Below are positions 1-17,752 of a stretch of 64,000 nt of DNA, piece by piece. The notes beneath the pieces were generated by a model that had not been told where the DNA came from, searched no databases, and saw only the letters and a list, made by a program, of their open reading frames with translations. Origin of the DNA: Actinomycetes bacterium (lineage in GTDB: Bacteria; Actinomycetota; Acidimicrobiia; Acidimicrobiales; JAMCPL01). The stretch is taken from positions 143,557 to 207,556 of the forward strand of contig JAKBVZ010000035.1 in the NCBI GenBank assembly GCA_021841005.1. The letters are read 5' to 3'. A program made the position numbers and the translations under genes. How positions within the stretch are numbered: position 1 is the stretch's first letter; each line of letters starts with the position of its first letter.

Positions 1-830
1 TCTGTCCCGGTTGCGGGCACGGGATCGTCCTCGATGCTATGCTGTCCGTGCTTTCGGAGCGGTACGAGGACCTCGACAATGTGGCGTTCGTGGCTGGTAT
101 CGGTTGTTCTTCGCGGATCATTGGTTACATAGATGCCTGTACCCTTCACACGGCACATGGCCGGCCGCTCTCTTTTGCCACCGGCCTCAAACTGGCTCGT
201 CCTGACCTCACCGTGGTCGTGATCACCGGAGACGGGGATGGATTGTCCATAGGGGGTAACCACCTCATCCATGCTGCCCGAAGGAACGTGGACCTCACCT
301 GCGTGCTCTTGAACAATGAGATCTACGGCATGACCGGCGGGCAAGCTGCACCTACCACCGTGCTCGGTGCGTACACTTCTACCACGCCTTTAGGTAACAC
401 CCAGCATCCCTTTGATGCTGCTGAACTGGCCAAAGCAGCGGGAGCAACCTTTGTTGCCAGATCTCAGAGTTACCGTCCCCAGGTCTTCGGAGAGCTGTTC
501 AGCCAGGCGCTGGATCATGTGGGGTTCTCCTTTTTGGAGGTGATGAGTGACTGTACCGAGTACTTCGGACGCACCAATCGTTTTGGTGAGGGGGCCGACA
601 TGCTCATGGGCCAGGCTAGGTATGAGCCGTCCATCGACGCCGATCTCGCCAGGATTCCTACAGTGGAGCCGGTAACCATCAAGCAACCGGTCCGTCCTGT
701 GTTGCCTATTGGTGTTCTTCATAGGTCGAGCCGTCTCACCCTTGAGGAAACTCTTGGAATTGAAGGCGGTCGGAGTTCGGGAGTTGCCGACGGCAAGCTG
801 GATGATGCAGTCCAGAGGATGGACGGGTGA
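1..830 (+). CDS. 2-oxoacid:ferredoxin oxidoreductase, beta (TPP-binding) subunit; 5' end cut by window edge
   Basis: Frame is open from nt 3. Translation begins CPGCGHGIV (Cys motif of OFOR beta N-termini) and contains the ITGDGDG...GGNH TPP-binding signature. Stop TGA 828-830 overlaps the next start. Confidence 0.85.
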   Translation, partial: CPGCGHGIVLDAMLSVLSERYEDLDNVAFVAGIGCSSRIIGYIDACTLHTAHGRPLSFATGLKLARPDLTVVVITGDGDGLSIGGNHLIHAARRNVDLTCVLLNNEIYGMTGGQAAPTTVLGAYTSTTPLGNTQHPFDAAELAKAAGATFVARSQSYRPQVFGELFSQALDHVGFSFLEVMSDCTEYFGRTNRFGEGADMLMGQARYEPSIDADLARIPTVEPVTIKQPVRPVLPIGVLHRSSRLTLEETLGIEGGRSSGVADGKLDDAVQRMDG

Positions 831-1555
831 TGGACGGGAGTCGCAGCAGAGTCAATGTGAGACTCACTGGTTCAGGTGGCCAGGGGATAGCCTTGGCTGC
901 CACCGTGCTCGCTGAAGCCGCGTTGGACACTGGGCTCTATGCCACAATGCTCCAGGAATATGGGCCAGAGGCAAGAGGCGGCGCCACCAAGGCTGACTTG
1001 TCAGTGGCCCGCTTGCCTATTGCCAACCCGCAGTTCCAGGTGCCCGATCTCTGCCTTGTCATCTCGGATAAGGCATGGACTCGCTTCGGCCAGGAATTGA
1101 TTGGGCGGAAGGATGTAGCTCTGGTGACGGACAGAGACAGGGTGGTGGTTCCAGGCGTAGGTGATCCCGCCGAGATGGGGATTATTTCCCTGCCCTTCGA
1201 TGAAGCGGCCAAGCTGCGGATAGGCGCAAAGGTCGTTGCCAATATGATCTGTGCTGCGTCGCTGGCCAGACTCATCGAAGCGATACCGCTCGATGGTGTG
1301 GCGAAGGTGGCTGAGAGGCGATCTCCGGCTGCGTTCAAAGACAAGAACCGTCAGGCTACTCAGCTGGGGTGGCAGATGATGGACGAGTACCTTTCTGTGC
1401 ACGTGCTCCCGTGGAGGACATCAGAGGGCGAGGTAGGTGTTCTGGCGGCCGGCGGCGACGTGGCCATTGCCGGCGTCGGTGCGCTTGGTGCCGGCAGTGG
1501 TGCCGGCGAAGGCTGGAGTCATGAAGGAGGTGGAAGGAGTGCGCTCCGCCCTTGA
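827..1555 (+). CDS. 2-oxoacid:ferredoxin oxidoreductase, gamma subunit
   Basis: VNVRLTGSGGQGIALAATVLAEAA...EYGPEARGG is typical of the OFOR gamma domain. GTG 827 or ATG 830 overlaps the beta stop. The Gly/Ala-rich C-terminal tail overlaps the next gene. Confidence 0.75.
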   Translation: MMDGSRSRVNVRLTGSGGQGIALAATVLAEAALDTGLYATMLQEYGPEARGGATKADLSVARLPIANPQFQVPDLCLVISDKAWTRFGQELIGRKDVALVTDRDRVVVPGVGDPAEMGIISLPFDEAAKLRIGAKVVANMICAASLARLIEAIPLDGVAKVAERRSPAAFKDKNRQATQLGWQMMDEYLSVHVLPWRTSEGEVGVLAAGGDVAIAGVGALGAGSGAGEGWSHEGGGRSALRP

Positions 1556-2744
1556 GGGCATGAAGGTGCTGGATCTCTCCCAGGGCGCAGCAGGCCCGAT
1601 TGCCGGGATGATTCTCGGTGAGTACGGCGCTGAAGTGATCAAGGTGGAACCTCCTGGCGGCGAGTGGGGGCGCAAGCTTGGTCCTCCATTCATCCAAGAT
1701 CAAGCTGCTTCGTACCTGGGAATGAACCGGGACAAGCGCTCTATCGTGATTGACCTCAAGCATGAAGAGGGTGGAGATGTTCTTCGTAGGCTGGCCTCGG
1801 TCTGTGATGTGGTGCTGGAGAGCTTCAGGCCGGGCGTCCTGGATAGGCTGGGTCTATCCTATGAGGCTCTCAGGGCTGAGCGCCCGGATGTCATCTGGTG
1901 TTCCATTACCGCTTTCGGCCAGGATGGTCCGTGGCGTGACAAGCCTGGGGTGGATGGGATCATCCAGGCGGTCTCGGGAATCATGAGTGTCACCGGTGAA
2001 CCAGATGGGGCACCGGTCAAGGTGGGGGTGCCTGCCGCCGATACAGTCGGTGCTTTGGTGGCGGTTCAGGGCATCTTGCTTGCCCTGCTCACTCGCAATT
2101 CCACGGGACGCGGGCAACGGGTGGATGTATCGCTGCTGGATTCTATGCTGATGTTCCAGACGGTGCCTTGGTCGATGTTCCAAGCGAGTGGTCGCTCTCC
2201 TGGCCGGCAAGGAAGTGCTGCGCCGTATGCCGCTCCGAACGAAGCCTTTCCCACCTCGGATGGCTATATCATGGTGGCTGCTTACTGGCCTGACCGTTGG
2301 AGAACGTTCACCGAGGTGCTCGGACGTCCCGAGCTTGCCCAAGATCCGCGTTTTGTGGATGTGGCTGCCAGGGTGGCCAACCGGTCTGCGATGTTCGAGG
2401 AACTCTCCAGCGCATTCAAGACGGCCTCTACGGACGAGTGGGTGGCCAGGTTGGAGGATGCAGATGTGGTCTGCGCGAAGATCTATGACTATGCCGCCCT
2501 GGCATCGGTGGAGCACCTTGTCGATGGGGAGCGTTTTCCTGCCCTGTACCATCCCATCCTGGGTAAGGTGCCGGGGGTGGGGATGCCTGCCAGACTCTCC
2601 TCCACACCTGCGGTTGCGCGCACTGCGGCTCCGCTGCCCGGTGAGCACAGCGTGGAGATCCTGACCGAGGTGGCCAATGTAGCAGATGAGCTGGTAGACC
2701 ACTGGCTCGAGGAAGGGGTGGTCGAGCAATGGCAAAAGGAGTGA
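1521..2744 (+). CDS. Family III CoA-transferase (CaiB/BaiF/BbsF-like)
   Basis: MKVLDLSQGAAGPIAGMILGEYGAEVIKVEPPGG N-terminal signature and family-typical length. ATG 1521 is chosen over the ORF-track start 1437. ATG 1560 is an alternative. Confidence 0.85.
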   Translation: MKEVEGVRSALEGMKVLDLSQGAAGPIAGMILGEYGAEVIKVEPPGGEWGRKLGPPFIQDQAASYLGMNRDKRSIVIDLKHEEGGDVLRRLASVCDVVLESFRPGVLDRLGLSYEALRAERPDVIWCSITAFGQDGPWRDKPGVDGIIQAVSGIMSVTGEPDGAPVKVGVPAADTVGALVAVQGILLALLTRNSTGRGQRVDVSLLDSMLMFQTVPWSMFQASGRSPGRQGSAAPYAAPNEAFPTSDGYIMVAAYWPDRWRTFTEVLGRPELAQDPRFVDVAARVANRSAMFEELSSAFKTASTDEWVARLEDADVVCAKIYDYAALASVEHLVDGERFPALYHPILGKVPGVGMPARLSSTPAVARTAAPLPGEHSVEILTEVANVADELVDHWLEEGVVEQWQKE

Positions 2745-2825: not shown

Positions 2826-3608
2826 ATGAGTGACCTGGTGCAATCGAACCTCGAAGAAGGAGCGGCGGTGGTGACCATCAATAGGCCGGATGCGCTCAAC
2901 GCGCTTACTCCGGAGATGCTGGGGGAGCTCAAGGAGTTGCTCGAGGGTTTCGACAGGGACATAGAGTGCCGTGCGGTTGTGCTGGCCGGTCAGCCCAAGG
3001 CTTTTTCAGTGGGCGCCGACATCAAGGGGCGGGTGGCCGAGTACGATACCGGCGGCGCCAGAGATGCCCTTGGCGAGATTATCAGAGGGCTTTTTTCTTA
3101 TATGGAGGCAATGTCCAAGCCGGTGATAGCGGCGCTTGCAGGGTACGTGCTTGGAGGAGGGTTCGAGCTGGCGCTGGCGTGCGACCTGCGGATAGCGGAT
3201 GGGACGGCCAAGTTTGGATTTCCAGAAGCCGGCGTGGGTAGTATGCCCGGCGCCGGCGGAACCCAGAGGCTGACCAGGTTGGCGGGTCCGGCGGCGGCCA
3301 TGGAACTCATGTTCAGCGGGGACCGCATCAGTGCAGATGAGGCATATCGATTCGGGCTCGTGAACAGAGTGGTTGCAGATGGAGATGCTGTACCTGCCGC
3401 CGTGGAACTCGGGAAGAAAATCGCCACCAAGGCGCCATTGTCAATTGACCGCATAAAGCGAAGCGTCTATGTGGCCACCAGCTCAGATCTGGCAACAGGG
3501 CTGGAGTTCGAGGCACTCTGCCACGCGTTCCTACGGGGAACTCACGACAGGGAAGAGGGTATGCGCGCCTTTGTGGAAAAGCGCGCTCCAAGATTCACAG
3601 GAAGGTGA
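2826..3608 (+). CDS. Enoyl-CoA hydratase/isomerase (crotonase family)
   Basis: [40 protein letters not shown] and [18 protein letters not shown] motifs. AGGAGGTGGAG SD lies 6 nt upstream of ATG 2826. Confidence 0.85.
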
Positions 3609-3615: not shown

Positions 3616-4362
3616 ATGGGCATAAAGGATCGTGTAGCTATAGTTACTGGTTCCGGTCAGGGAATCGGAGAGGGCATAGCGCGTCGCCTGGCAAATGGCG
3701 GCGCCAGGGTTGTACTCAATGATGTGGATTCATCGCGAGTGGCCGGGCTTGCCGAGGACATGAAAGCGGCAGGCCTGGAGGCCGGCTACTACGCCGGTGA
3801 CGTATCTACGAAGGCTGGTGCAGATGGATTGGTGGATTATGCTATTCGTCAGTTTGGCAAGGTTGACATCCTAGTGAACAATGTTGGCATAGCCCGGGAT
3901 AAGTGGCTGGTGAAGATGTCTGAGGATGACTGGGATGAGGTTCTGAGGGTCAACTTGAAGTCTCCGTTTCTCTGTACGCAGGCAGTGGTCAAAGCCATGA
4001 TGGATGCCAACTACGGTCGGATAGTCAATATAGGCTCGCGTGCATGGTTGGGAGGAGCCGGGCAGTCAAATTATTCGGCATCCAAGGGCGGAGTGGTCAG
4101 CTTCACCCGTACACTTGCTCTCGAGTTCGCCAAGTACCAGATAACCGCCAATTTGGTCGCACCTGGACTGGTGGATACTCCACTTTTCCGGGGCTTGGAC
4201 AGGGAAGTCCAGGAGCGTTTGGTAAAGACGGTTCCGGTGGGACGGATCGGGGGCCCGGATGATATCGGTCATGCCGTGGCTTTCTTTGCCGATGACGATT
4301 CCTGGTACATCACCGGTCAGGTGCTCTATGTATGTGGCGGCCGTAGCGTAGGGGCATACTGA
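3616..4362 (+). CDS. Short-chain dehydrogenase/reductase (3-oxoacyl/3-hydroxyacyl reductase-like)
   Basis: AIVTGSGQGIGEGIA Rossmann motif, NNVG, and the YSASKGG catalytic YxxxK. Internal ATG 3616 of ORF 3469..4362 was chosen because upstream codons overlap the crotonase gene. Confidence 0.85.
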   Translation: MGIKDRVAIVTGSGQGIGEGIARRLANGGARVVLNDVDSSRVAGLAEDMKAAGLEAGYYAGDVSTKAGADGLVDYAIRQFGKVDILVNNVGIARDKWLVKMSEDDWDEVLRVNLKSPFLCTQAVVKAMMDANYGRIVNIGSRAWLGGAGQSNYSASKGGVVSFTRTLALEFAKYQITANLVAPGLVDTPLFRGLDREVQERLVKTVPVGRIGGPDDIGHAVAFFADDDSWYITGQVLYVCGGRSVGAY

Positions 4363-4416: not shown

Positions 4417-4815
4417 ATGACCAGAGTGGATGAAGTGAGTATTCCCGAGAAGGTGGCCAACTACGTGATCGAAGGCGACAGGGTCCGCCTGCGGGCAAGC
4501 AGGTGCCCTACCTGCGGGTCTGTATTTCATCCGCCGCGAACGATCTGTCCGACCGATGGTGCCGGTCCTCTCGAAGAGATATTGCTCGGTAATAAGGGCA
4601 CAGTATATACATTCACGGTAGTAAGGCAGTCCACTCCGGAGTTCAAGACGCCCTACGTACTTGTCTATGTGGATTTTCCAGAGCAGGTACGGGTGCTGAT
4701 GCCCTATGACGGGGAGGAGCCTCCTTCAATCGGCAGCCAGGTGGACATTGTGATGGGACTCGGACCCAAGCAAGAGGAGGGAGAGCTTGCAAGCGTTCCG
4801 CATGCCAGGTCGTAA
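4417..4815 (+). CDS. DUF35 family Zn-ribbon/OB-fold protein (BbsA-like thiolase partner)
   Basis: CPTCGSVFHPPRTICPTDG rubredoxin-like ribbon followed by an OB-fold-like region, immediately upstream of an SCP-x type thiolase. GAGGAGGAGAG SD precedes ATG 4417. Confidence 0.75.
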   Translation: MTRVDEVSIPEKVANYVIEGDRVRLRASRCPTCGSVFHPPRTICPTDGAGPLEEILLGNKGTVYTFTVVRQSTPEFKTPYVLVYVDFPEQVRVLMPYDGEEPPSIGSQVDIVMGLGPKQEEGELASVPHARS

Positions 4816-4924: not shown

Positions 4925-6067
4925 ATGGAAGAAGTATATGTAATTGGTATCGGGATGACGCCATTTGGCAAACATCCAGATAACACTGCCGCTGACCTTG
5001 GAGCAGAGGCGGTCGGCTTGGCCTTGGCCGATGCAGGGGTTGGTCGCCAGGATATAGAGGCTGCGTGGGTTGGCCATGTGTTTCAAGGCATGGCTATGGG
5101 GCAGCGTGCTCTGTACGCGGCAGGGCTTTCAGGCATTCCCATAGACAACGTGGAGAATGCCTGCTCTTCAGGGTCTACCGCTATATGGGATGCGGCCATG
5201 GCCTTGCGAGCCGGAGCTTACGACTTGGTGTTGGCATTAGGGGTGGAGCACCTGACCAGCCTGTTCAGAGGAGCCTTTGCTCCAGATGCCAGCGACGTGG
5301 AGGCGCAGATAGGAATTACCATGCCAGGCATATATGCCATGAGGGCGCAACGCTATATGCTTCAGTACGGGGTTGTTCCAGAGCAGATTGCTCAGATAAC
5401 GGTAAAGAACAAGAAGAATGCGGCCATGAATCCCCTCTCGCACTTCAAGAAGGCGGTTACCTTGGAAGAAGTCATGCAGGGGCGGCTGATAGCAGACCCG
5501 TTGCGCTTGCACGAGTGTGCGCCGGTAAGCGACGGAGCGGCTGCGGTGGTACTGGCCAGCAAGGCCAAGCGCAACCAACTCGGCGGGAGCAGGGCTGTCA
5601 AACTGGCGGCTACTGCGCTTATGAGCGGGCGTATAGAGTCCGGCCTTGCAGACATGACCGTGGAGGATCTCACCTGGCGTACCGCCCAGGCAGCGTACAA
5701 ACAGTCAGGCGTCGGTCCAGGAGACATCGACTTTGCCGAGGTCCACGACTGCTTCAGCATTGCCGAGGCATTGCGCGTCGAGGGGATGGGCCTCTTCCCG
5801 CACGGCGAGTACGTAGCCAGGGTAGGCAAGGGTGAGGCGGATATAGGCGGCTCGTTCCCCGTCAATGCAAGTGGTGGTCTCCTAGGCAAAGGCCATCCGC
5901 TCGGAGCTACAGGCGTTGCCCAAGTCGTGGAGCTGGTGAAGCAGCTACGGGGTGACGCAGGGGAGCGCCAGATCCAAAACGCCAAAGTAGGCGTAGCGCA
6001 CTGCCGGGGCGGCAAAGCCCAGGGGGTGGAGGGTACTGCCTGCACGGTCAACATCCTTGTTGCCTGA
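4925..6067 (+). CDS. SCP-x/BbsB-type thiolase-like protein
   Basis: VYVIGIGMTPFGK N-terminus, ENACSSGSTA active-site Cys region, and C-terminal HDCF...NASGGLLGKGHPLGATG motifs. Confidence 0.8.
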   Translation: MEEVYVIGIGMTPFGKHPDNTAADLGAEAVGLALADAGVGRQDIEAAWVGHVFQGMAMGQRALYAAGLSGIPIDNVENACSSGSTAIWDAAMALRAGAYDLVLALGVEHLTSLFRGAFAPDASDVEAQIGITMPGIYAMRAQRYMLQYGVVPEQIAQITVKNKKNAAMNPLSHFKKAVTLEEVMQGRLIADPLRLHECAPVSDGAAAVVLASKAKRNQLGGSRAVKLAATALMSGRIESGLADMTVEDLTWRTAQAAYKQSGVGPGDIDFAEVHDCFSIAEALRVEGMGLFPHGEYVARVGKGEADIGGSFPVNASGGLLGKGHPLGATGVAQVVELVKQLRGDAGERQIQNAKVGVAHCRGGKAQGVEGTACTVNILVA

Positions 6068-6115: not shown

Positions 6116-7324
6116 ATGACAGGAAGCGAGGTGTACGTGAATCCAGCGAAGGGTGGTGCTGTCCCCTCGAAGTCGCTGGAGGGAGAGCTGGTGGCCGTGG
6201 ACTGCGCCATCATCCGTGGTGGCACTTCCAAGGGTGTGTTTGTCCCTCGGCAAGCGTTGCCGGACGATCAGGCGGCATTGGAACAGTTCCTGCTGGCCCT
6301 GATGGGAAGCCCTGATCCTCGCCAAATAGACGGGCTAGGAGGAGCCGACCTCCTTACGAGCAAGGTGGCGATAATCGGACCACCGACTATCAAAGGCGCT
6401 GACCTCGACTACACCTTTGCACAGGTGAGCATCACCAAGTCACAGGTCAACATGGACATGAACTGCGGCAATGTGTCTGCAGCAGTAGGCATTTATGGTG
6501 TGGAGCACGGTTTTGTAGAGCTAACCGAGCCTGTTACCACTCTTAGAGTGCACAACACCAATACCCGCAAAGTGTTTGTCGCCAGTGTGCCGGTATCCGG
6601 AGGCCATCCGCTGGTGGAGGGAACCTGCCAGGTCGACGGGGTGCCTGGTACTGGGGCAGAAATAATGCTCGACTATTCTGATACGGTGGGTTCCGTCACG
6701 GGCAGGCTCTTGCCTACCGGTGAGGGCGTGGATATGGTGGATGTCCCCTCGGTCGGCACGGTTCCAGTGTCCATTGTCGACATAGCCAACCTGTGCGCGT
6801 TCGTACGGGCTTCTGACTTGGGTCTCGAGTCAGGAGAGATCCCCTCGTTTCCCAGCGACGTCATGATTGCCAGAGTGGATTCCCTGCAGCGTGCCGTGGC
6901 ACGGATGCTCGGTGTTGCAGAGGGTGGCCTGGTTCCCATCCCGGTGCTCTTAGATGATGCCCATGACTACTCCACTGTGGTAGGTGATGGCCAGGTAAAG
7001 GCAGTGGACATCGACTTCGTTGCCCAGGTGATCGGAGGCCAGCCTCTTGCCTTGCACAAGGCGTTTCCCGGTACGGCCAGCGTGACAGTCGCCGTGGCGG
7101 CCAGGTTGCCGGGCACCCTCGCTTACCAGGGTGACACAGGCACAGAGGAGGTCCGGATCGGCCACCCCAGCGGTAGAAACTTGGTAAGGGCTCTGGTGTC
7201 TGTAGATGATGCAGGCAACCCAAAAGTCGAGAAGGCCGCCTACTCGAGAACGGCCCGGAAGCTGATGGAAGGGAAGGCGTTTGTAAAAAGGGCCAAAGCG
7301 ACCGTAGGAGGAGGAAATGCGTGA
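6116..7324 (+). CDS. PrpF/methylaconitate-methylitaconate isomerase family protein
   Basis: AIIRGGTSKGVFV hallmark near the N-terminus, about 400 aa, two-domain DapF-like organisation inferred from length. Stop overlaps the next start (GTGA). Confidence 0.75.
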   Translation: MTGSEVYVNPAKGGAVPSKSLEGELVAVDCAIIRGGTSKGVFVPRQALPDDQAALEQFLLALMGSPDPRQIDGLGGADLLTSKVAIIGPPTIKGADLDYTFAQVSITKSQVNMDMNCGNVSAAVGIYGVEHGFVELTEPVTTLRVHNTNTRKVFVASVPVSGGHPLVEGTCQVDGVPGTGAEIMLDYSDTVGSVTGRLLPTGEGVDMVDVPSVGTVPVSIVDIANLCAFVRASDLGLESGEIPSFPSDVMIARVDSLQRAVARMLGVAEGGLVPIPVLLDDAHDYSTVVGDGQVKAVDIDFVAQVIGGQPLALHKAFPGTASVTVAVAARLPGTLAYQGDTGTEEVRIGHPSGRNLVRALVSVDDAGNPKVEKAAYSRTARKLMEGKAFVKRAKATVGGGNA

Positions 7325-8664
7325 TATTTGAACCTGGGTTAGAGGCGATGGACCGCGAAGCCTTGGACGAGCTTCAGTCGGCACGGTTACGGGAGATGGT
7401 GGCAAGGGTTTACCAGCGTGTCCCACCCATGAGGGAGCGTTTGGAGGAGGCATCCATCCGGCCAAGTGACATCCAGGGTATATCTGACCTTCATAAGCTG
7501 CCGTTCACCAGGAAGACCGATCTGCGGGACAACTATCCTTTCGGGTTGTTCGCTGTGGACACAAAGGAGCTGGCGAGGATACACGCCTCATCGGGAACCA
7601 CCGGTAAACCGACGGTCGTGGGCTATACGCGCGCTGACCTCGATCTATTTGCCACGGTGTGTGCCCGAGCGCTTGCCGCTTCCGGTGCCGAGCCAGGCAT
7701 GATTCTCCACAATGCCTATGGCTACGGACTCTTCACCGGCGGTTTAGGCTTCCATGCAGGTGGAGAGCATCTGGGTATGGTCGTCGTGCCGGCATCTGCC
7801 GGTATGACCGAACGGCAAGTCATGCTGATGAGGGACTTCCATGCACAGGTGCTTGCCTGTACGCCCAGCTATGCACTCACCATAGCCGCAGAGTTTGCTC
7901 GCCAAGGGATGTCTCCAGAGGAGGTGCCTCTCGACTATGCGGTCTTAGGGGCCGAGCCTTGGACAGAAACCATGCGCGCTGAGATAGACAGTTCGTTGGG
8001 AGTAAAAAGCGTCAATGTCTACGGCCTGTCCGAGATCATCGGCCCTGGGGTGTCCTACGAGTGCGTGGAGGCGCGGTCCGGTTCTCACCTCAACGAGGAT
8101 CATTTCCTAGCGGAGGTCGTCGATCGTGATAGCGGGGAGCAGCTGCCCATCGGGGAAGAAGGCGTGCTGGTGATTACTACCCTCACCAAAGAGGCATTGC
8201 CCTTGATCCGTTACTGGACCGGGGACATCACCAGCCTGGACAGATCTCGATGCAGTTGCGGCCGCAGTTCAGCCAGGATGTCCATGGTGAAGGGCAGGAC
8301 GGACGACATGCTGATCGTGAGGGGAATCAATGTATACCCGAGCCAGGTCGAGGCTGCTTTTGGCGGTGTGGACGAACTCACGCCGTACTACCGGTTGCTG
8401 GTGGATCGCACGGGTATATTGGATGAGTTGGAAGTAGAAGTGGAGCTTTCCGAGGATGCGTTTCGCAGGGTGGCTGCTGAGTTCCTTTCCGACGAGATAG
8501 TGGAGGCCGATCATCTGTTGCGCAGGGTACGGGACATGACCCAACGGGCGATCAGAGAAAACGTCGGAGTGTCCGCCAAGGTGACCCTGCTGGAGCCTGG
8601 CAGGCTACCCCGTTCGGAGGGCGGTAAAGCTCAGCGGGTCGTGGACAGACGCCGGCTATCGTGA
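7321..8664 (+). CDS. Phenylacetate-CoA ligase-like adenylating enzyme (PaaK/F390 synthetase family)
   Basis: LPFTRKTDLRDNYPFGLFA and SSGTTGKPTVVGYTRADL motifs, about 447 aa. Confidence 0.85.
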   Translation: MIFEPGLEAMDREALDELQSARLREMVARVYQRVPPMRERLEEASIRPSDIQGISDLHKLPFTRKTDLRDNYPFGLFAVDTKELARIHASSGTTGKPTVVGYTRADLDLFATVCARALAASGAEPGMILHNAYGYGLFTGGLGFHAGGEHLGMVVVPASAGMTERQVMLMRDFHAQVLACTPSYALTIAAEFARQGMSPEEVPLDYAVLGAEPWTETMRAEIDSSLGVKSVNVYGLSEIIGPGVSYECVEARSGSHLNEDHFLAEVVDRDSGEQLPIGEEGVLVITTLTKEALPLIRYWTGDITSLDRSRCSCGRSSARMSMVKGRTDDMLIVRGINVYPSQVEAAFGGVDELTPYYRLLVDRTGILDELEVEVELSEDAFRRVAAEFLSDEIVEADHLLRRVRDMTQRAIRENVGVSAKVTLLEPGRLPRSEGGKAQRVVDRRRLS

Positions 8665-9615: not shown

Positions 9616-9660
9616 TGTGCTTGGCCGGCATCGGGCCGGCATCGGGTGTGGGTGTAGGCG

Positions 9661-10383
9661 ATGAAATTGCCGGCTGTCACTGACGTACCAAGTCGCGAGG
9701 AGGTTGTCCCGGACGGCGCTCTTCTAGCTACTTACGATCTGGTCGTACGCTATAGCTCGGCAGTGGCTCTGGACGGCGTGAGCATGCATGTGGGACGGGG
9801 CGAGATGGTAGCGCTGATAGGTCCGAACGGAGCCGGGAAGTCGACCCTGCTGAATACGTTGTCGGGTATTCGCCGTCCGGCGGCAGGAAGGATAGTTTGT
9901 AGGGGAAAGCTGGCGCATGTGCCCGAGGGGCGCCAGCTCTTCCCAGAGCTTACCGTGGAGGACAACTTACGCTTGGGCGCTTACCGTGGCGGCTCCAGGG
10001 ATCCCGATCCTATATACGAATTGTTTCCGCAACTGCACGGGCTTCGTAAACGCCGTGCTGGCGGGTTGTCCGGTGGCGAGCAGCAGATGGTCTCTATCGG
10101 CCGTGCGCTCATGGCCAATCCGGACATCATGGCCGTGGACGAGCTTTCCCAGGGATTGGCCCCGATAGTCGTGTCAGACATAATCAGGCATCTGGTTGCC
10201 TTGAACGAAGAGAAGGGGATTGCCGTCCTGCTGGTCGAGCAGAACGCCCGCCTGGCTCTGGGCATCACCTCACGTGCCTATGTGCTGGAAAACGGGCGTG
10301 TGAGCAAGGAGGGTCGCTCGGAGGATCTGGCTCGTGATCCTGCGGTGCACAAGGCTTACCTCGGAGGTCAAGTAGGGCAATGA
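9661..10383 (+). CDS. livF: Branched-chain amino acid type ABC transporter, ATP-binding protein (LivF-like)
   Basis: GPNGAGKSTLLNTLSG Walker A, LSGGEQQMVSIGRAL signature, about 240 aa. Confidence 0.85.
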   Translation: MKLPAVTDVPSREEVVPDGALLATYDLVVRYSSAVALDGVSMHVGRGEMVALIGPNGAGKSTLLNTLSGIRRPAAGRIVCRGKLAHVPEGRQLFPELTVEDNLRLGAYRGGSRDPDPIYELFPQLHGLRKRRAGGLSGGEQQMVSIGRALMANPDIMAVDELSQGLAPIVVSDIIRHLVALNEEKGIAVLLVEQNARLALGITSRAYVLENGRVSKEGRSEDLARDPAVHKAYLGGQVGQ

Positions 10384-11234
10384 GTGCTTTTACCGAGTAC
10401 CTCATAACCGGTGTTGCCAGAGGATTGGTCTTTGCGTTGCTGGCCACCGGATTCGTGCTGATTTACCGGGTCACCCGGGTGGTCAACTTTGCCCAGGGCG
10501 CCTTTGCCGTGTTCGGAGGCTTGCTTACCTTCTCATTGTTGCGTGCGGGCATACCCCAGGGGGTCTCGGAGGTACTGGCCGCCTTGGCTGTGGCTGTTAT
10601 CGGCCTTATTTTTGGGGTCATCACCATTGCCGGGAAGATCCCTCTGCTTTCTTCGCTCATTATAACCATAGGGCTCGCCATGTTGAGCGAGGCTATCGCC
10701 ATGCTCGCATGGGGCTCAATCCCGATCAGCTACTCGGGACTGGCCGGTCATGACTTTGTAATTCTGGGAGCGGTTGTTCAACGCCAGTATCTATTGGTGC
10801 TCGTAGTCTCCTTGGTACTGTTTGGGTCCATGGCGCTGCTCTTCGGTCGAACTTATTTTGGTAAGGCGATGACCGCATGTGCCTCGAATGCCTATGCCGC
10901 CAAGCTGTCAGGCATCAACGTGAAGCGCATGGGGTTGCTGGCTTTCATACTTGGCGGCGCTCTGGGGGGTATTGGCGGGGCACTGCTCACCCCCGTGGAG
11001 CCTATGACTTACAATGCAGATGTATCCTTGTCCATACTCGGTTTTGCGGCGGCAATCGTAGGAGGACTCACCAGTCCTGGATTGGCCGTAGCCGGCGGGC
11101 TGGTATTCGGTCTTACCGAGCAGTTCGTATCTGGATACTGGTCTCCTTCCTACGACACCGCTGTAGCACTGGCGCTACTGATCGTAGTTCTGTTGTGGCA
11201 GGCACGGCGCATGCGCCTGGAGGGTCTGGAATGA
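10380..11234 (+). CDS. livH: Branched-chain amino acid type ABC transporter permease (LivH-like)
   Basis: Polytopic hydrophobic protein starting YLITGVARGLVFALLATGFVLIYRVTRVVNFAQG (LivH N-terminal pattern). ATGA overlaps with both neighbours. Confidence 0.85.
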   Translation: MSAFTEYLITGVARGLVFALLATGFVLIYRVTRVVNFAQGAFAVFGGLLTFSLLRAGIPQGVSEVLAALAVAVIGLIFGVITIAGKIPLLSSLIITIGLAMLSEAIAMLAWGSIPISYSGLAGHDFVILGAVVQRQYLLVLVVSLVLFGSMALLFGRTYFGKAMTACASNAYAAKLSGINVKRMGLLAFILGGALGGIGGALLTPVEPMTYNADVSLSILGFAAAIVGGLTSPGLAVAGGLVFGLTEQFVSGYWSPSYDTAVALALLIVVLLWQARRMRLEGLE

Positions 11235-12280
11235 GCGAGCGCATGCGGTCTTTGCTTGTACTGTCCCTGGCGGTGGTCATCGGGCTGGTGACGTTGGCTC
11301 TACCGCTCGTCTTGTCCTCCTCCGACGTGGAGATCTACGTGACCATAGGTCTTGCCACCATTGTGGTAACTGGGCTCTCTCTGTTGATGGGGTTTGCCGG
11401 CCAAGTTTCCCTGGGGCAGGCAGCGTTTTACGGGGTTGGCGCTTACACCGCAGGTATCATGGCGGTTCACCATTGGCCCTCGCTCGTGGCTTTGATGGCC
11501 GCACCAATCGCCGCTGGCGTCATTGCCTTCGTCATCGGGGTTCCGTTGTTGCGGCTCAAGGGTCATGCGCTGGTCTTCAGCACTCTGGCGTTCCAGCTGA
11601 TCCTGCTGGTGGTCATAGAGAATACGTCCTTTTTGACCGGGGGTGCCATCGGTCTGTCTGGCATCCCGGCTCTACACGTCGGACCGCTAGCGATCAGCAC
11701 CGGCAAGGACTACGCCTACTTGGTTTGGATTGTCGCAGTGGCCGTTTTGCTCATTACCAGGAATCTCACGCGCTCTCGTCCCGGAAGAGCGCTTCGGGCA
11801 ATGGCCATCACCGCGTCCGGCGCTTCGGCCGCCGGGATTGCAGTGGAGAGCTATAAGCTGAAAGATTTTACTCTTTCGGCTGCATATGCCGGCATAGCCG
11901 GTGGCATATACGTGTTTTTCATCGGCTATATATCGCCCGACGCATTTCCCGTGACTCTTTCGATAGAGTTTGTGATAATGGTGGTGGTCGGAGGTATCGG
12001 GACTGTTTCCGGTGCATTCGTGGGGGCGGCGGTTGTAACCGTGATTTCGCAGGTACTCACCTCTCTGGGCACGAGTCCCTCGTTGCCTCCCGACCTGCCT
12101 ACCGTGTTGTCCCTTGGTGTCTATGCGCTGATTCTGATCATCATCCTTCGTCTGATTCCCGCAGGGGTGGTGGGAACGCTGAGCGATCTCTGGAAGAAGA
12201 CCAAACCATCGGCGTCCAATCCAGTGGACACAACAGGTCGGAGTGTCCTGGATTCCACTGTTCAGGCAAAAGATGGGTGA
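11231..12280 (+). CDS. livM: Branched-chain amino acid type ABC transporter permease (LivM-like)
   Basis: GFAGQVSLGQAAFYGVGAYTAG motif. ATG 11231 overlaps the livH stop (ATGA). The ORF-track start 10877 lies inside livH and was rejected. Confidence 0.85.
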   Translation: MSERMRSLLVLSLAVVIGLVTLALPLVLSSSDVEIYVTIGLATIVVTGLSLLMGFAGQVSLGQAAFYGVGAYTAGIMAVHHWPSLVALMAAPIAAGVIAFVIGVPLLRLKGHALVFSTLAFQLILLVVIENTSFLTGGAIGLSGIPALHVGPLAISTGKDYAYLVWIVAVAVLLITRNLTRSRPGRALRAMAITASGASAAGIAVESYKLKDFTLSAAYAGIAGGIYVFFIGYISPDAFPVTLSIEFVIMVVVGGIGTVSGAFVGAAVVTVISQVLTSLGTSPSLPPDLPTVLSLGVYALILIIILRLIPAGVVGTLSDLWKKTKPSASNPVDTTGRSVLDSTVQAKDG

Positions 12281-12287
12281 GCCTAGT

Positions 12288-12376
12288 GGTCTGTCCTGTA
12301 AATAGCGTGACGTCATCCGGCAAGCCAGGGGCGTCATCTGGCTGGCGGGAACCCATGGTTATTTGCGGGACAGGCC
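12288..12376 (+). other. Strand-specific long-range RNA stem between livM and the binding-protein gene
   Basis: GGTCTGTCCTGTAAAT (12288-303) pairs with ATTTGCGGGACAGGCC (12361-76) as 13 Watson-Crick plus 3 G-U pairs on the plus-strand RNA. The same positions would be C-A mismatches on the opposite strand. Confidence 0.45.
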
Positions 12377-12567
12377 ACCAGTTTCAGATGATTTCGTGAA
12401 TAACAGGTTTCGACATGGTCGTTGTGCAATAATAAGTGGTAACGAGAAAGAGGTATGTCAGGGTAAGAGGAATGTGCAGAATAAAGGGAGGTCATCAGGC
12501 TGGTTCATCCTGCCCGATGTTCCCGGTAACCAGGAAAAAATATATACAAGAAAAGGAGATGGCAGTT

Positions 12568-14129: not shown

Positions 14130-15638
14130 ATGCACACTGTTCAGGATCCGCTGGCGCGCGGAACATTGATTGCAAGAGATGAGGTTGCAGTAATATGCGG
14201 AGAGTCTACGCTTTCCTACCGGCAATTGAACGATCGCGTCCACCGGCTGGCATTTGCCCTGTCAGAACTCGGGCTGGGCGCCGGCGATCGGGTGGGAATA
14301 GTCGCAGGCAATTGCCACCGTTATGTCGAGAGCTATCTGGCGATCCCCGCTGCAGGCATGGTCATCGTACCGATCAATACGAGGGCATCGGAGCCCGAGA
14401 TGGAGTTTGTGCTCAGGGACGCCGGAGTCAAGGTGCTCATCACTGATCGCGCGCCGGCTGGCTACGAGGCAGGCTTGGTGTCGGTCATTCGAATGCCCGA
14501 GGAGTACGAGGACATCGTAGCCGCAGCCCGTCCCGAGCCATTCCACATACGCCCATCCGAAGAAGATCTGGCGGGTATTTTCTATACGGGGGGCACTACC
14601 GGTCGCTCAAAGGGGGTGATGCTTACCCACCGCAATTTGATTTCCAATGCCATCACCGCACTCGTCTGGGCAAAGTTGGGCAAGGAGGATCGATGGCTGG
14701 TAATGGCGCCCATGCATCACGCGGCCGGCACGTGTTTGGTCCTGTCCAGTCTTTGGATCGGTGCAAGCCAGGTCATGCTGCCGGCCTTCTCCGCTGCCGG
14801 GGCGCTTGATCTGATCGAGCGCCACCAGGCCTCAGGCACGCTCGCTGTACCAACGATGATGATCGCCATGAACGATGAGCAAACGGCCCGGCCTCGTAAT
14901 ATCGACTCGCTGAGATTGCTCAGCCACGGTGCATCCCCTGCTCCAGTCGAAGTGCTCAGGCGTGCTCATGCCGTCTTTCCAAAAGCGGAGTTGCTTCACC
15001 TCTACGGCACCACCGAGACCGCGCCGATAGCCACCACCTTCCAGAATGAGGAGCAGCACTTGAATGACGAACTGGCCGGTTCAGTTGGGCAACCGGCACT
15101 GGGAGTAGAGGTTGCGGTGTTTGATCCTGACAACGACCCTTTGCCTTCCTCTGCTGCCGGCGAGATTGTGCTTCGAGGGAACAACGTCATGGCTGGCTAC
15201 TGGGGATTGCCGGAGGAGAGCGCCAAAGCCCTGGAGGGGGGATGGTACCACACAGGAGACCTTGGCTTCATCACTGAAGCAGGCTATCTTTTCCTGAACG
15301 ATCGATTGAAGGATATGGTAGTTACCGGAGGCGAGAACGTCTACACGATAGAGGTCGAGGATGCCCTGTACCGGCATCCCAAGGTGCAGGAGGCTGCCGT
15401 TTTTGGAGTACCCGACGAGCGATGGGGGGAATCTGTCTTGGCTGTGGTGGTGCCACGCGAGCCTGTCACCGAAGAGGAGATCATCTCCCATTTACGGCCG
15501 CTTATAGCGGGATACAAAATACCAAGACATATCATAATTCAAAATGAACCCCTGCCAAAGTCAGCGGCCGGCAAGATACTCAAGCGGGAATTGAGAGAGC
15601 CCTACTGGCAAGGTCGAAAAACGAGAATCGGCAACTAA
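14130..15638 (+). CDS. AMP-dependent acyl-CoA synthetase/ligase (FadD-like)
   Basis: IFYTGGTTGRSKGVMLTHRN AMP-binding motif, GWYHTGDLG, and C-terminal PKSAAGKILKRELR. Confidence 0.85.
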   Translation: MHTVQDPLARGTLIARDEVAVICGESTLSYRQLNDRVHRLAFALSELGLGAGDRVGIVAGNCHRYVESYLAIPAAGMVIVPINTRASEPEMEFVLRDAGVKVLITDRAPAGYEAGLVSVIRMPEEYEDIVAAARPEPFHIRPSEEDLAGIFYTGGTTGRSKGVMLTHRNLISNAITALVWAKLGKEDRWLVMAPMHHAAGTCLVLSSLWIGASQVMLPAFSAAGALDLIERHQASGTLAVPTMMIAMNDEQTARPRNIDSLRLLSHGASPAPVEVLRRAHAVFPKAELLHLYGTTETAPIATTFQNEEQHLNDELAGSVGQPALGVEVAVFDPDNDPLPSSAAGEIVLRGNNVMAGYWGLPEESAKALEGGWYHTGDLGFITEAGYLFLNDRLKDMVVTGGENVYTIEVEDALYRHPKVQEAAVFGVPDERWGESVLAVVVPREPVTEEEIISHLRPLIAGYKIPRHIIIQNEPLPKSAAGKILKRELREPYWQGRKTRIGN

Positions 15639-15650
15639 GGGATATATCAG

Positions 15651-16544
15651 TTGAAACGACATCATGTCGGGTCAATTCCAGCCGGTCAAACATTGATTCT
15701 TGCCGGGCCTGTTGGCATTGTCGGCGGAGGCATTATGGGTTCAGGTATTGCCGCCCAGTCCATGGCGAGCGGCTTGCCTGTAATCCTTGTGGAGGCGTCA
15801 GACCAGCGTGCAGAGGACGCTCGAGAGCGGGTACGGCGGGCAGTTTCCCGCATTCACGAGCACGATGATGGGGGTGCTCGCGGCCGGAGCGGTTTCCCTG
15901 AGCCTGAGCTGTTGGTCTCTACCGACCTGGCCCAGGTCAGTGGCTGCCCGCTCGTGATAGAGTCAGTTCCGGAAGTCGCCGAGCTGAAGCGGGAGGTCCT
16001 CGCTGGGATCGCGGGAATCGTTGCCGCTGACACCCTGATCGCCACCAACACATCGTCGATTGCTTTGAAGGAATTGCAGGTGGCCGTCGGGCGCCCGGAG
16101 CGTTTCGGCGGGCTCCATTTTTTCAATCCCGTACCGGCATCCTCGCTGGTGGAGGTAGTGCGTGGTTCTGCAACAGGCAGCGAAACCATTCTGGACTTTG
16201 TGCGCTTCGCAGAAGGGCTTGGCAAGGAATGCATCGTAGTCAATGACTCACCCGGATTTGCCACCTCCAGACTGGGCGTAATATTGGGACTGGAGGCCAT
16301 AAGGATGCTCGAGGAGGGGGTGGCAAGTGTGGAGGATATCGACAGGGGCATGATTCTCGGGTACAGGTATCCGATGGGTCCTCTCAGATTGACCGATCTG
16401 GTGGGCTTGGATGTCCGTCTGGCGATTGCCCGCTATCTGGCGCCCACGCTCGGGCCGCGCTTCGAGCCCCCTCGCTTGCTGGTGGATAAGGTTGCCTGTG
16501 GCGAGCTGGGGAAGAAGTCGGGAGTAGGGTTTTACACATGGTAG
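15651..16544 (+). CDS. 3-hydroxyacyl-CoA (3-hydroxybutyryl-CoA) dehydrogenase
   Basis: VGIVGGGIMGSGIA NAD fold, HFFNPVP, and GFATSRL motifs. TTG start. Confidence 0.85.
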   Translation: MKRHHVGSIPAGQTLILAGPVGIVGGGIMGSGIAAQSMASGLPVILVEASDQRAEDARERVRRAVSRIHEHDDGGARGRSGFPEPELLVSTDLAQVSGCPLVIESVPEVAELKREVLAGIAGIVAADTLIATNTSSIALKELQVAVGRPERFGGLHFFNPVPASSLVEVVRGSATGSETILDFVRFAEGLGKECIVVNDSPGFATSRLGVILGLEAIRMLEEGVASVEDIDRGMILGYRYPMGPLRLTDLVGLDVRLAIARYLAPTLGPRFEPPRLLVDKVACGELGKKSGVGFYTW

Positions 16545-16555
16545 GAGATTGAGGG

Positions 16556-17752
16556 ATGGCTAGAGCTTTGCTGGTTGGAGGGTTGAGGACGCCATTCGGG
16601 CGCTATGGCGGGGCACTGGCATCAGTCAGGCCGGATGACATGGCGGCGCTGGTCTTGAAAGGAGTGGCAGGGAAGTTTGCTTTCTCGGGATCGGATGTGG
16701 ATGAGGTGATCCTAGGCTGTGCCAACCAGGCTGGGGAAGATAATCGCAATGTCGCCCGGATGGCAACCCTCATTGCCGGCTATGGTGAGAGAGTACCAGC
16801 AGTGACTGTCAACCGTCTCTGCGGTTCAGGGCTGGATGCAGTTCTGGCCGCTGCCAGGATGGTGAAGCTCGGTGAGGCCGATCTTGTGATAGCGGGCGGG
16901 GTGGAAAGCATGTCGCGAGCACCATTCGTTGTTCCAAAGGCCGATACGGCCTTCGATAGGAAGTCGGAGATATTTGATACGACTATCGGATGGCGTTTTG
17001 TGAATTCGCTCATACAGAAGGAATTCGGGATAGACTCAATGCCTGAAACTGCAGAAAATATTGCTGAAGAGTTCAATATTGCTCGGGAGGATCAAGATCT
17101 CTTCGCTTTTCATTCCCAGGAGCGGGTTGCCAAGGCTCGAGCCAGCGGTCGTCTCGGGAGGGAGATCATCCCGGTGGAAGTCAAGCTCCGCAGGGAGACC
17201 AGAGTTGTCGATCAGGATGAGCACCCCAGACAGACTTCGCTCGAAGCACTAGCCAAGCTTCCGGCACCCTTCAGGGAGAACGGTTCGGTGACAGCGGGTA
17301 ACGCGAGTGGGGTGAACGATGGCGCCGCTGTCGTTGTAGTCGCCGGCGATGCGGCTGTGTCCAGATTCGGATGGGAGCCCCTGGCTGAGATCGTTGCCGG
17401 TGCAACCGCTGGAGTCCCTCCACGGATCATGGGCATAGGACCAGTCCCGGCAACCCGTAAGGTTCTTGACCGGGCAGGCATTTCCCTTGCTGACCTCGGG
17501 GTCATCGAGTTGAACGAGGCTTTCGCCTCACAGGCTGTTGCCTGCTTGCGTGAGTTCGGCCTTCCCGAGGATGCCGGCTGGATCAACCCGAACGGCGGAG
17601 CAATATCTCTAGGCCACCCTCTTGGTGCCAGTGGTGCCAGGCTGGCACTCACTGCTGCCATCGAACTCTCTGAACGGGGTGAGGCTTATGCATTGGCCAC
17701 TATGTGTGTAGGTGTCGGGCAGGGGATAGCAGCGATACTGTCGCGTCCCTGA
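16556..17752 (+). CDS. Acetyl-CoA C-acyltransferase (thiolase II/FadA/PaaJ-like)
   Basis: VNRLCGSGLDAV active-site Cys, NEAFASQ, GHPLGASGARL, and CVGVGQG C-terminal motifs. Confidence 0.9.
   Translation: MARALLVGGLRTPFGRYGGALASVRPDDMAALVLKGVAGKFAFSGSDVDEVILGCANQAGEDNRNVARMATLIAGYGERVPAVTVNRLCGSGLDAVLAAARMVKLGEADLVIAGGVESMSRAPFVVPKADTAFDRKSEIFDTTIGWRFVNSLIQKEFGIDSMPETAENIAEEFNIAREDQDLFAFHSQERVAKARASGRLGREIIPVEVKLRRETRVVDQDEHPRQTSLEALAKLPAPFRENGSVTAGNASGVNDGAAVVVVAGDAAVSRFGWEPLAEIVAGATAGVPPRIMGIGPVPATRKVLDRAGISLADLGVIELNEAFASQAVACLREFGLPEDAGWINPNGGAISLGHPLGASGARLALTAAIELSERGEAYALATMCVGVGQGIAAILSRP

Follow-up and report, generated by a model that had tools for sequence, protein, structure and literature searches.

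A Bbs-like gene cluster of an Acidimicrobiia-type genome: a candidate carbon-conserving route from aromatic 2-oxoacids to aroyl-CoA and succinyl-CoA

The window analysed here is a stretch of 64,000 nt (contig JAKBVZ010000035.1, positions 143,557 to 207,556; C31:143557-207556 in the numbering used below) of a 2.45-Mb, 93.9% complete actinobacterial genome (G000). The nearest database relatives of its proteins are found in metagenome-assembled genomes (MAGs) of Acidimicrobiales. Its first 17,752 nt carry the distal two thirds of a single-strand gene run of about 23.5 kb. The conserved core of this run probably, though far from certainly, converts keto acids derived from phenylalanine or tyrosine, or arylacetates, to (4-hydroxy)benzoyl-CoA and succinyl-CoA by a carbon-conserving route. 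With similar reserve, the system is judged to be a variant of Bbs-type beta-oxidation that is fed by a front end of the LeuA/LeuCD/Mii type.

In the proposed scheme a LeuA-like synthase would condense phenylpyruvate or 4-hydroxyphenylpyruvate with acetyl-CoA to 2-(4-hydroxy)benzylmalate, a dedicated LeuCD/DmdAB-like dehydratase would form benzylmaleate, and a PrpF-family isomerase of the Mii (3-methylitaconate delta-isomerase) type would move the double bond so that it is conjugated with the ring, the product being (4-hydroxy)phenylitaconate (benzylidene-succinate). A family III CoA-transferase with succinyl-CoA as donor would supply the CoA ester, which would be hydrated by a crotonase, oxidized by a BbsD-like short-chain dehydrogenase/reductase (SDR) and cleaved by the DUF35/BbsB-like thiolase to (4-hydroxy)benzoyl-CoA and succinyl-CoA. 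The products would then pass to neighboring enzymes resembling 4-hydroxybenzoyl-CoA reductase (HCR) and benzoyl-CoA reductase (BCR), and to BoxBC. By our own reasoning the carbon balance of the scheme holds (R+3 plus 2 equals R+1 plus 4). A BbsG-type acyl-CoA dehydrogenase would be unneeded because the pathway enters at the enoyl level, and the substrate would need a CH2 group beside the keto group because the SDR would otherwise meet a tertiary alcohol.

Genes were called from a listing of open reading frames (ORFs) combined with Pfam and NCBIfam scans, and starts were refined afterwards. A sequence-only reading of the window had described 17 consecutive plus-strand genes at 1-17752, with short gaps and several 4-nt overlaps. 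The genes and their families are as named there, and with refined starts the 4-nt overlaps lie at the junctions of the beta and gamma subunits of a 2-oxoacid:ferredoxin oxidoreductase (OFOR), PrpF/PaaK, LivF/LivH and LivH/LivM; the CoA-transferase start overlaps OFOR gamma by 35 nt. The gaps are short only in part, three of them being large (153 nt at 8664-8818; at least 278 nt at 12280-12559 or later; 281 nt at 13848-14130), and given these a single 17-gene operon is unproven. The genes of the window on which the scheme draws are the following.

1..830, plus strand, OFOR beta subunit, thiamine pyrophosphate-binding (PF02775, E 1.9e-33), its 5' end cut off by the window edge; the complete gene encodes 313 aa and begins 111 nt before the window (complete ORF in L003, the extended locus of this genome)
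827..1555, plus strand, OFOR gamma subunit with POR domain (PF01558, E 2.7e-20), following beta in L011-L016
1521..2744, plus strand, family III CoA-transferase of the succinate-hydroxymethylglutarate CoA-transferase (SUGCT)/mesaconate type (PF02515, E 2e-121)
2826..3608, plus strand, crotonase-family enoyl-CoA hydratase (PF00378, E 8e-64), assigned to the BbsH-equivalent step
3616..4362, plus strand, SDR, BbsD-like 3-hydroxyacyl-CoA dehydrogenase (best solved homologue BbsD)
4417..4815, plus strand, BbsA-like DUF35 Zn-ribbon/OB protein (zf-ChsH2 and OB_ChsH2_C; PF12172 and PF01796)
4925..6067, plus strand, BbsB-like SCPx-type thiolase with Thiolase_C_1 (best solved homologue BbsB)
6116..7324, plus strand, PrpF-family isomerase, Mii type (PF04303, E 3.6e-93)
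7321..8664, plus strand, PaaK-type arylacetate-CoA ligase (TIGR02155, 570.8 bits, below the 646.3 cut-off)

The unit is larger than the 1-17752 first drawn; genes on the same strand extend for about 5.75 kb upstream of the window, as far as a divergent gene of the benzoate-CoA ligase family. The upstream part encodes, in order, the LeuA-like synthase, IorA, an IorB-ferredoxin fusion, OFOR alpha and the start of OFOR beta, with further 4-nt overlaps at the synthase/IorA and IorA/IorB junctions. The OFOR alpha subunit, which had been predicted to lie upstream of the window, was found there (501 bits, cut-off 411).

Benzylsuccinate beta-oxidation, the Bbs system of Thauera, Aromatoleum and Geobacter, which degrade toluene anaerobically, shares with the proposed module, in the same order, succinyl-CoA-dependent family III CoA transfer, enoyl-CoA hydration, SDR oxidation and thiolysis by a DUF35 protein and an SCPx thiolase to aroyl-CoA and succinyl-CoA. 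The best solved homologue of the thiolase is benzoylsuccinyl-CoA thiolase BbsB (7PXP_C, 284.6 bits); against the NCBIfam BbsB model it scores 292.9 bits with a cut-off of 750, as a homologue and not an equivalog. A DUF35 protein and a thiolase are a textbook pair in which DUF35 is the non-catalytic partner, and a BbsAB-type pair of adjacent DUF35 and SCPx-type thiolase genes is present here. The DUF35 protein scores 52.8 bits against the NCBIfam BbsA model (cut-off 250), and among solved structures 54.9 bits to an archaeal DUF35 protein and 38.7 bits to BbsA. Among solved structures the SDR is closest to BbsD (7PCS_B, 260.9 bits, full length), ahead of all FabG entries; only one SDR gene is present, where Bbs has the BbsCD pair. 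The best 25 NCBIfam matches of the crotonase are generic hydratase models only, all below cut-off. For the CoA-transferase, which is 55-83% identical in syntenic loci, the best solved homologue is SUGCT (248.7 bits, against 146 for BbsF and 131 for BbsE), the best NCBIfam models are succinate-glutarate and succinyl-CoA:mesaconate transferases, and a single gene is present, not a heteromeric BbsEF. The enzyme set named in the sequence-only reading is Bbs-like as a whole, its thiolase and SDR being nearest to BbsB and BbsD; by homology the label "bbs-like" is justified for the thiolase pair and the SDR but not for the transferase, which is nearest to SUGCT and not to BbsEF.

The differences from Bbs go further. 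BbsG is missing and a Mii-type isomerase is present; a single SUGCT-like CoA-transferase and one SDR are found where Bbs has BbsEF and BbsCD; no protein of the run reaches a Bbs equivalog score in NCBIfam, all being far below cut-off; and the proposed source of the substrate is a 2-oxoacid and not a hydrocarbon. The genome also lacks the glycyl-radical fumarate-adding enzyme of the Bbs systems: a search for glycyl-radical enzymes like pyruvate formate-lyase (PF02901) gave no match in the 93.9%-complete assembly. Acyl-CoA dehydrogenase domains were missing from all 17 window genes in the Pfam and NCBIfam scans, as had been noted from the window, and none was found in the upstream part of the run or in the core of any locus examined. 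The closest acyl-CoA dehydrogenase gene (C31:129152-130327) lies 7 kb before the cluster begins, and other loci show no synteny for it. It was rejected as a BbsG equivalent; its neighbors, a TetR gene on one side and a BadH-like SDR gene on the other, belong to a set of ring-pathway genes, and it resembles cyclohexanecarbonyl-, acryloyl- and glutaryl-CoA dehydrogenases.

The isomerase is an integral member of the cluster, as had been supposed, being linked in every locus, and by structure scores it is of the Mii type and not of the methylcitrate-cycle type (Mii 3G7K 293.7 bits, LigU 194, PrpF 174). Its NCBIfam scores (203 for PrpF, 280 for 4-oxalomesaconate tautomerase) are both below the cut-offs of 440. 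Residues K83 and C117 are invariant in 27 orthologues, and their 34-residue spacing agrees with that of the catalytic Lys/Cys pair in PrpF and Mii. In a quick maximum-likelihood tree all cluster-linked PrpF proteins fall into one supported clade (SH-aLRT 97), which is nested among LeuCD-adjacent, Mii-like sequences. The orthologue is rare, with 5 carriers among 401 sampled genomes of the phylum and 3 among 61 relatives. The pairing of Mii with DmdAB is known from nicotinate fermentation, and the lower pathway of Eubacterium barkeri (Mii, the dimethylmalate dehydratase DmdAB and the lyase Dml) is like the proposed front end in pairing a Mii-type isomerase with a hydro-lyase of the LeuCD/DmdAB family, the substrates of both enzymes being an alkyl-maleate, an alkylidene-succinate and an alkyl-malate. 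Here the reactions are proposed to run the opposite way (malate to maleate to itaconate type), CoA-dependent beta-oxidation would take up the product in place of a lyase, and the substituent is presumably aromatic. More distant PrpF homologues (39-44% identity) adjoin LeuCD-like genes in Moorella mulderi, Desulfosporosinus sp. Tol-M and other anaerobes (L040, L044, L046, L047, L058, L059). In one genome (G191:C12:142600-143703) the PrpF orthologue has one in-frame TGA in an open frame of 838 aa, which extends toward the HcrA-like gene behind it; these could be two adjacent genes read through, or the result of a sequencing error.

The LeuA/NifV/CimA-like synthase comprises 442 aa with an HMGL-like domain only, and scores 178 bits against its best NCBIfam model (cut-off 517). 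No LeuA_dimer regulatory domain was detected in it with Pfam and NCBIfam, and among solved structures its nearest are homocitrate synthase and isopropylmalate synthase (IPMS), at 113 bits or less. The cluster synthases of other loci are 55-59% identical to it, compared with 24-30% for the LeuA paralogues of its own genome, and on these identities it is taken to belong to a separate orthologous group. Three loci without OFOR genes (L026, L036, L045) have a LeuCD-like pair within the cluster, whose genes are arranged as LeuD-LeuC-SDR-crotonase-CoA-transferase-synthase on one arm and, divergently, as DUF35-thiolase-PrpF on the other. In the present genome an extra pair of the LeuCD/HacAB/DmdAB type is encoded 17 kb upstream (C31:118261-120080), distinct from the housekeeping LeuC (on C28) and from aconitase (on C17); the LeuC proteins encoded within clusters are 52-55% identical to this extra paralogue and 32-34% to the housekeeping LeuC. 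The 2-oxoacid elongation pathways (LeuA-LeuCD-LeuB and HphA-HphCD-HphB) are likewise made up of a Claisen condensation with acetyl-CoA and a dehydratase of the aconitase family. They differ in that no LeuB-type dehydrogenase is present here, the exit being proposed at the alkylmaleate stage, in that the present synthase is without the LeuA regulatory domain, and in their biosynthetic setting, as opposed to a catabolic one. For HphA, formation of benzylmalate from phenylpyruvate is established (PMC12961565).

The earlier suggestion had been that the pathway receives an already unsaturated dicarboxylate as such. Since a LeuA-like synthase is conserved with the module, the dicarboxylate is more likely made in the cell from a 2-oxoacid and acetyl-CoA than imported. 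The fuller form of the import explanation, in which an unsaturated or substituted dicarboxylate from outside the cell (of the type of itaconate, mesaconate or methylsuccinate, or else a benzylmalate of plant origin, for example eucomic acid) is taken up, isomerized, CoA-activated and beta-oxidized while the OFORs and PaaK belong to an arylpyruvate module of their own, is considered unlikely. It would agree with the Mii-like nature of the isomerase, Mii acting on free methylitaconate, with the kinship of the CoA-transferase to mesaconate- and glutarate-type transferases, with the importers (Liv, NMT1-type ATP-binding cassette (ABC) or major facilitator superfamily (MFS)) often embedded in the cluster, and with a betaproteobacterial version that has no synthase. 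Against this, the synthase is kept even in loci that have no OFORs (L026, L045), which argues for a dicarboxylate made in the cell, and the importer type varies between loci. Hydration of itaconate gives a tertiary or a primary alcohol; the SDR needs a secondary one, which excludes itaconate itself. The linkage to HCR-like and BCR-like genes would also be left unexplained.

Conservation was studied from PrpF homologues in a large protein collection, of which six contexts (86% down to 50% identity) were inspected, and from 80 further loci of GTDB species genomes onto which the proteins of the run were mapped by tblastn. The core comparison comprises 25 loci with a PrpF at least 48% identical, from Actinomycetota, Armatimonadota, Bacillota and Pseudomonadota (one Kiloniellaceae MAG). 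The DUF35 and SCPx thiolase genes are the immediate upstream neighbors of PrpF in all loci that include this flank (22/25 loci), the crotonase is syntenic in all core loci, and the CoA-transferase, crotonase, SDR, LeuA-like synthase, IorA, IorB-Fer4 and OFOR alpha, beta and gamma are also linked where the contig is long enough. This linkage is kept in collinear and in divergent layouts (L027-L033), and even where a TetR gene and an NMT1-type ABC importer have been inserted (L015, L016) or the OFORs have been lost (L026, L036, L045). Below about 45% PrpF identity it is lost, with two exceptions, namely the LeuCD-adjacent PrpFs of anaerobes and a reduced set in Betaproteobacteria (L030, L034 and, in Variovorax saccharolyticus, L039:4435-11143). 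The reduced set comprises a D-2-hydroxyacid dehydrogenase, SCPx thiolase, SDR, crotonase, CoA-transferase and PrpF (42-52% identical) and is without synthase and OFORs; its hosts are cultured and aerobic, and it may offer a tractable system for studying the isomerase and beta-oxidation part of the pathway.

That the stretch is a mosaic, a catabolic island of independent modules (OFORs, generic beta-oxidation, a stray PrpF, PaaK, importer and PcaF set) that merely share a strand, is very unlikely. Such a mosaic would account for the three large intergenic gaps and the repeat insertion within the window, for the absence of the whole 17.8 kb from sister genomes as one island, and for the lack of conservation of the distal eight genes with the rest. 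It is disfavored because chance co-location would not keep the membership of a 12-13-gene core through rearrangement, inversion and insertion, in four phyla and down to 48% PrpF identity.

Upstream of the run lies an island (C31:114487-137121) that begins with genes for an HcrABC-like molybdenum enzyme, the extra LeuCD-like pair, boxB, boxC, four BCR-like genes, a TetR gene and the acyl-CoA dehydrogenase mentioned above, and continues with a BadH-like SDR, a class I CoA-transferase subunit next to a 259-aa ORF without family assignment, a crotonase carrying a Zn-ribbon tail, an Amidohydro_2 gene and the gene of the benzoate-CoA ligase family. The molybdenum enzyme has three subunits (C31:114487-118264). 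Its large subunit scores 580 bits to HcrA (1RM6_A), the next structure being CoxL with 293; the medium subunit is nearest HcrB (193 bits to 1RM6_B, full length), and the gamma subunit scores 185.7 bits, below its cut-off of 257.8. By homology the enzyme appears specifically nearest to HcrA and HcrB and is regarded as 4-hydroxybenzoyl-CoA-reductase-like, which fits a 4-hydroxybenzoyl-CoA product from tyrosine-derived substrates. Orthologues of it (58-63% identity) directly follow PrpF in L028, L029, L031, L033, L041 and L045 and in genomes G045 and G191. The best models of the four BCR-like genes (two HGD-D, two BcrAD_BadFG) are BcrC, BcrB, BcrA and BcrD, all below cut-off, and four such genes follow the core in L016, L022 and L041. 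An HGD-D pair is found on the contig of the PrpF orthologue in 5/5 Actinomycetota genomes that have the orthologue; among 61 relatives it is present in 3/3 genomes with an orthologue (at least 48% identity) and in 4/58 without, these kin not being independent. BoxB (777 bits, cut-off 499) and BoxC are both encoded within 25 kb upstream. Dedicated LeuCD-like, HCR-like, BCR-like and benzoate-CoA ligase genes recur beside the core elsewhere, and here all lie within 25 kb upstream. This context lay outside the view of the sequence-only reading, and the HCR-like, BCR-like, box and benzoate-CoA ligase genes in it indicate aromatic substrates. Oxygen-dependent (box) and oxygen-sensitive (BCR-like) systems stand side by side in one 2.4-Mb genome of the Acidimicrobiia type.

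The same neighborhood bears on two other explanations. One is that the same chemistry acts on aliphatic 2-oxoacids, in a branched-chain amino acid route with the OFOR as VOR/KOR, and this is rated quite unlikely; the example considered, condensation of 4-methyl-2-oxopentanoate or 2-oxobutyrate with acetyl-CoA to an alkylmalate and onward to isobutyryl- or acetyl-CoA and succinyl-CoA, has an equally slight chance. Aliphatic substrates would suit the Liv-type importer found here and in L012 and L018, the KOR/VOR type of the second OFOR, and the position of the synthase nearest IPMS and homocitrate synthases. They are opposed by IorA, an aryl-pyruvate enzyme that passes its equivalog cut-off, by the PaaK-type ligase after PrpF in eight loci, by the recurrence of HCR-like, BCR-like and benzoate-CoA-ligase genes beside the core, and by the Liv importer itself, which is not conserved and whose binding protein is not assignable. 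The other, which is highly improbable, takes the BCR-like four-subunit enzyme to be an ATP-dependent 2-hydroxyacyl-CoA dehydratase that forms phenylitaconyl-CoA from 2-benzylmalyl-CoA, with PrpF salvaging side products. The HGD-D subunits do also match HadBC dehydratase models (152-157 bits), the enzyme is linked to the cluster in all five genomes, and the dehydratase step otherwise has no in-cluster gene here; yet the best matches are BcrC (247 bits) and BcrB (218 bits), the ATPase subunits are of two kinds, as they are in BCR, no member of the cluster is conserved more tightly than PrpF, and a dedicated LeuCD-like pair exists.

The tie of OFOR and PaaK to arylpyruvate and arylacetate metabolism, suggested from the window, was strengthened by the genuine IorA upstream, which meets its equivalog (TIGR03336, 656.8 bits, cut-off 650.9). 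IorB follows IorA with 158.9 bits, below its cut-off of 237, and carries at its C-terminus a fused 2x[4Fe-4S] ferredoxin domain (C31:141153-142184, equal to L003:12597-13628). The fusion (289-430 aa, POR and Fer4) is kept in L011-L014; its Fer4 domain resembles a delta subunit belonging to the alpha/beta/gamma OFOR encoded next, and the fusion may physically couple the two oxidoreductases. This second, four-domain OFOR is of the KOR/VOR type, and the best NCBIfam match of its beta subunit is that of 2-oxoglutarate:ferredoxin oxidoreductase, below cut-off. A PaaK gene follows PrpF in eight loci (L011, L012, L013, L017, L018, L020, L021, L023), and the score of 570.8 bits listed above does not reach the PaaK equivalog.

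These enzymes could serve the pathway in either of two ways. In the first, PaaK would convert arylacetate to arylacetyl-CoA, which IorAB would carboxylate reductively to arylpyruvate, the second OFOR supplying the electrons through the fused ferredoxin domain. In the second, IorAB and the OFOR would supply reduced ferredoxin, acetyl-CoA and succinyl-CoA for the reductases, a role resembling that of KorAB in Thauera. The electron donor system of benzoyl-CoA reductase in Thauera aromatica is 2-oxoglutarate:ferredoxin oxidoreductase KorAB together with a ferredoxin. The likeness is that an OFOR is encoded with genes of the benzoyl-CoA pathway; the differences are that the OFOR here is of the alpha/beta/gamma type with its delta (ferredoxin) domain fused to IorB, and is linked to the Bbs-like module and not to bcr. 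By analogy, the conservative role of the second OFOR would be to regenerate reduced ferredoxin for the HCR-like and BCR-like reductases. The bolder proposal, that the two OFORs are joined through the IorB-ferredoxin (delta) fusion in a ferredoxin-mediated exchange that drives reductive carboxylation of PaaK-made arylacetyl-CoA to arylpyruvate, is doubtful. Oxidative decarboxylation of pyruvate or 2-oxoglutarate would in that case yield the acetyl-CoA or succinyl-CoA that the pathway consumes, and an irreversible benzylmalate synthase would pull arylpyruvate onward. If true, the exchange would allow oxygen-independent degradation of phenylacetate and 4-hydroxyphenylacetate by carboxylation and C2 extension to aroyl-CoA and succinyl-CoA, without the molybdenum-dependent alpha-oxidation of the Pad route.

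The Pad route of anaerobic phenylalanine and phenylacetate degradation (PadJ ligase, PadBCD and the phenylglyoxylate:acceptor oxidoreductase PadEFGHI) with HcrABC for the 4-hydroxy series likewise leads from arylacetate or arylpyruvate to (4-hydroxy)benzoyl-CoA and includes a PaaK-type ligase, an OFOR-type enzyme and 4-hydroxybenzoyl-CoA reductase, but loses two carbons as CO2 by alpha-oxidation, where C2 extension and release as succinyl-CoA are proposed here. Models of PadE, PadG and PadI gave only 35-69 bits against cut-offs of 300-700. There are three DMSO-reductase-family loci elsewhere in the genome, which make a PadBCD-type alternative sink for phenylacetyl-CoA conceivable. A PaaABC(DE) oxygenase was not found in this genome, the sole PaaA_PaaC match being BoxB with 28.9 bits. 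Lack of a Paa oxygenase was rejected as a general rule among carriers of the cluster: G045 and G191 have genuine PaaA/PaaC, and G000, G004 and G114 have none.

Several points weigh against the proposed route from aromatic 2-oxoacids. Every substrate in it has been assigned from family membership, nearest homologues and linkage. The synthase is distant from every characterized member of its family (113 bits or less to solved structures), and the dehydratase is encoded outside the cluster here and in most collinear loci, so that the second step rests on a gene 17 kb away. In terms of sequence similarity the crotonase carries no Bbs-specific signal, the CoA-transferase is not BbsEF-like, and the BCR-like subunits are well below equivalog cut-offs. 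If the IorAB enzyme is oxidative, it would compete with the synthase for arylpyruvate. The betaproteobacterial version is without a synthase, and the module can therefore use another substrate supply. The locus counts, finally, overstate independence, the neighbors being phylogenetically related.

Benzoyl-CoA is the hub of anaerobic aromatic metabolism, and to our knowledge the side chain is given off as CO2 in the known routes that reach it from phenylalanine, tyrosine or arylacetates. If the proposed route is true, it would be a new peripheral pathway in which acetyl-CoA is added and the side chain is recovered as succinyl-CoA, and in which enzymes of the toluene (Bbs) type are reused without any radical enzyme. 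It would give functions to widespread LeuA-like, LeuCD-like and PrpF-like paralogues in uncultured Actinomycetota and Armatimonadota. Metagenomic "bbs-like" genes are often taken as markers of hydrocarbon degradation, and their annotation would be improved. A literature search of incomplete coverage, which is no proof of novelty, gave no paper linking PrpF/Mii with a DUF35-thiolase, IOR or benzylmalate catabolism; the matches were instead papers on toluene Bbs enzymes, HphA biosynthesis and plant benzylmalates.

The distal part of the run contains the following features.

8818..12280, plus strand, LivG, LivF, LivH and LivM, ATPases and permeases of an ABC importer (Pfam, NCBIfam)
12283..12381, no strand assigned, dispersed repeat of about 97 nt, five copies in this genome
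12559..13848, plus strand, Peripla_BP_6 solute-binding protein (PF13458, E 1e-51), start at 12559, 12568 or 12676
14130..15638, plus strand, FadD-type acyl-CoA synthetase, accessory (NF004837, 489.3 bits, above the 476 cut-off)
15651..16544, plus strand, 3-hydroxyacyl-CoA dehydrogenase (HADH), PaaH/Hbd-like, accessory (PF02737 and PF00725)
16556..17752, plus strand, 3-oxoadipyl-CoA thiolase of the PcaF/PaaJ type, accessory (NF006551, 607.8 bits, cut-off 605; TIGR02430, 594.1 bits, cut-off 597)

Elsewhere the Liv importer accompanies the core in just two loci (L012 and L018), where the order or orientation of the genes differs, and other loci have an NMT1-type ABC system or an MFS transporter in its place. 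Matches of the binding protein to solved binding proteins do not exceed 84 bits, and the names of these entries allow no assignment of a ligand. The part given to this importer in the earlier suggestion that an amino-acid-derived 2-oxoacid feeds the pathway is not borne out, the importer not being conserved with the core and its binding protein not being assignable to amino acids. The FadD-HADH-PcaF genes show no conservation with the core either; by the locus comparison they are, like the importer, lineage-specific local additions, and they probably serve the 3-oxoadipyl-CoA end of the box pathway (lower box/beta-ketoadipyl-CoA steps).

The right end of the run (17752) is a real boundary and the left end of the window is not. 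A sister genome (G004) is collinear over 1-19000 with 91-95% identity, and three genomes of the same genus (G001-G003) and one of the same family (G005) align only from about 17.9 kb onward; the whole stretch is therefore placed in a variable island. A promoter and terminator scan of 1-19000 gave counts at or below the shuffled expectation and is uninformative on operon limits. A 113-aa ORF before the synthase (C31:137470-137811, equal to L003:8914-9255) has no family match and no counterpart in other loci and is probably no gene but non-coding leader DNA, in a divergent promoter region shared with the benzoate-CoA ligase gene.

An apparent RNA stem at 12283-12381, between livM and the binding-protein gene and inside the second large gap, is a copy of the dispersed repeat of about 97 nt, which has inverted ends. 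Besides the five copies in this genome there are dozens in the same-genus genomes G001 and G003. The repeat is judged a recent insertion and not a dedicated regulatory structure because G004, otherwise collinear, has none at this site. At the junction of the CoA-transferase and crotonase genes, a 33-38-nt piece of an insert (window 2755-2792) matches G004 sequences on C11 and at C14:171636 with 92-94% identity, and may be another small repeat.

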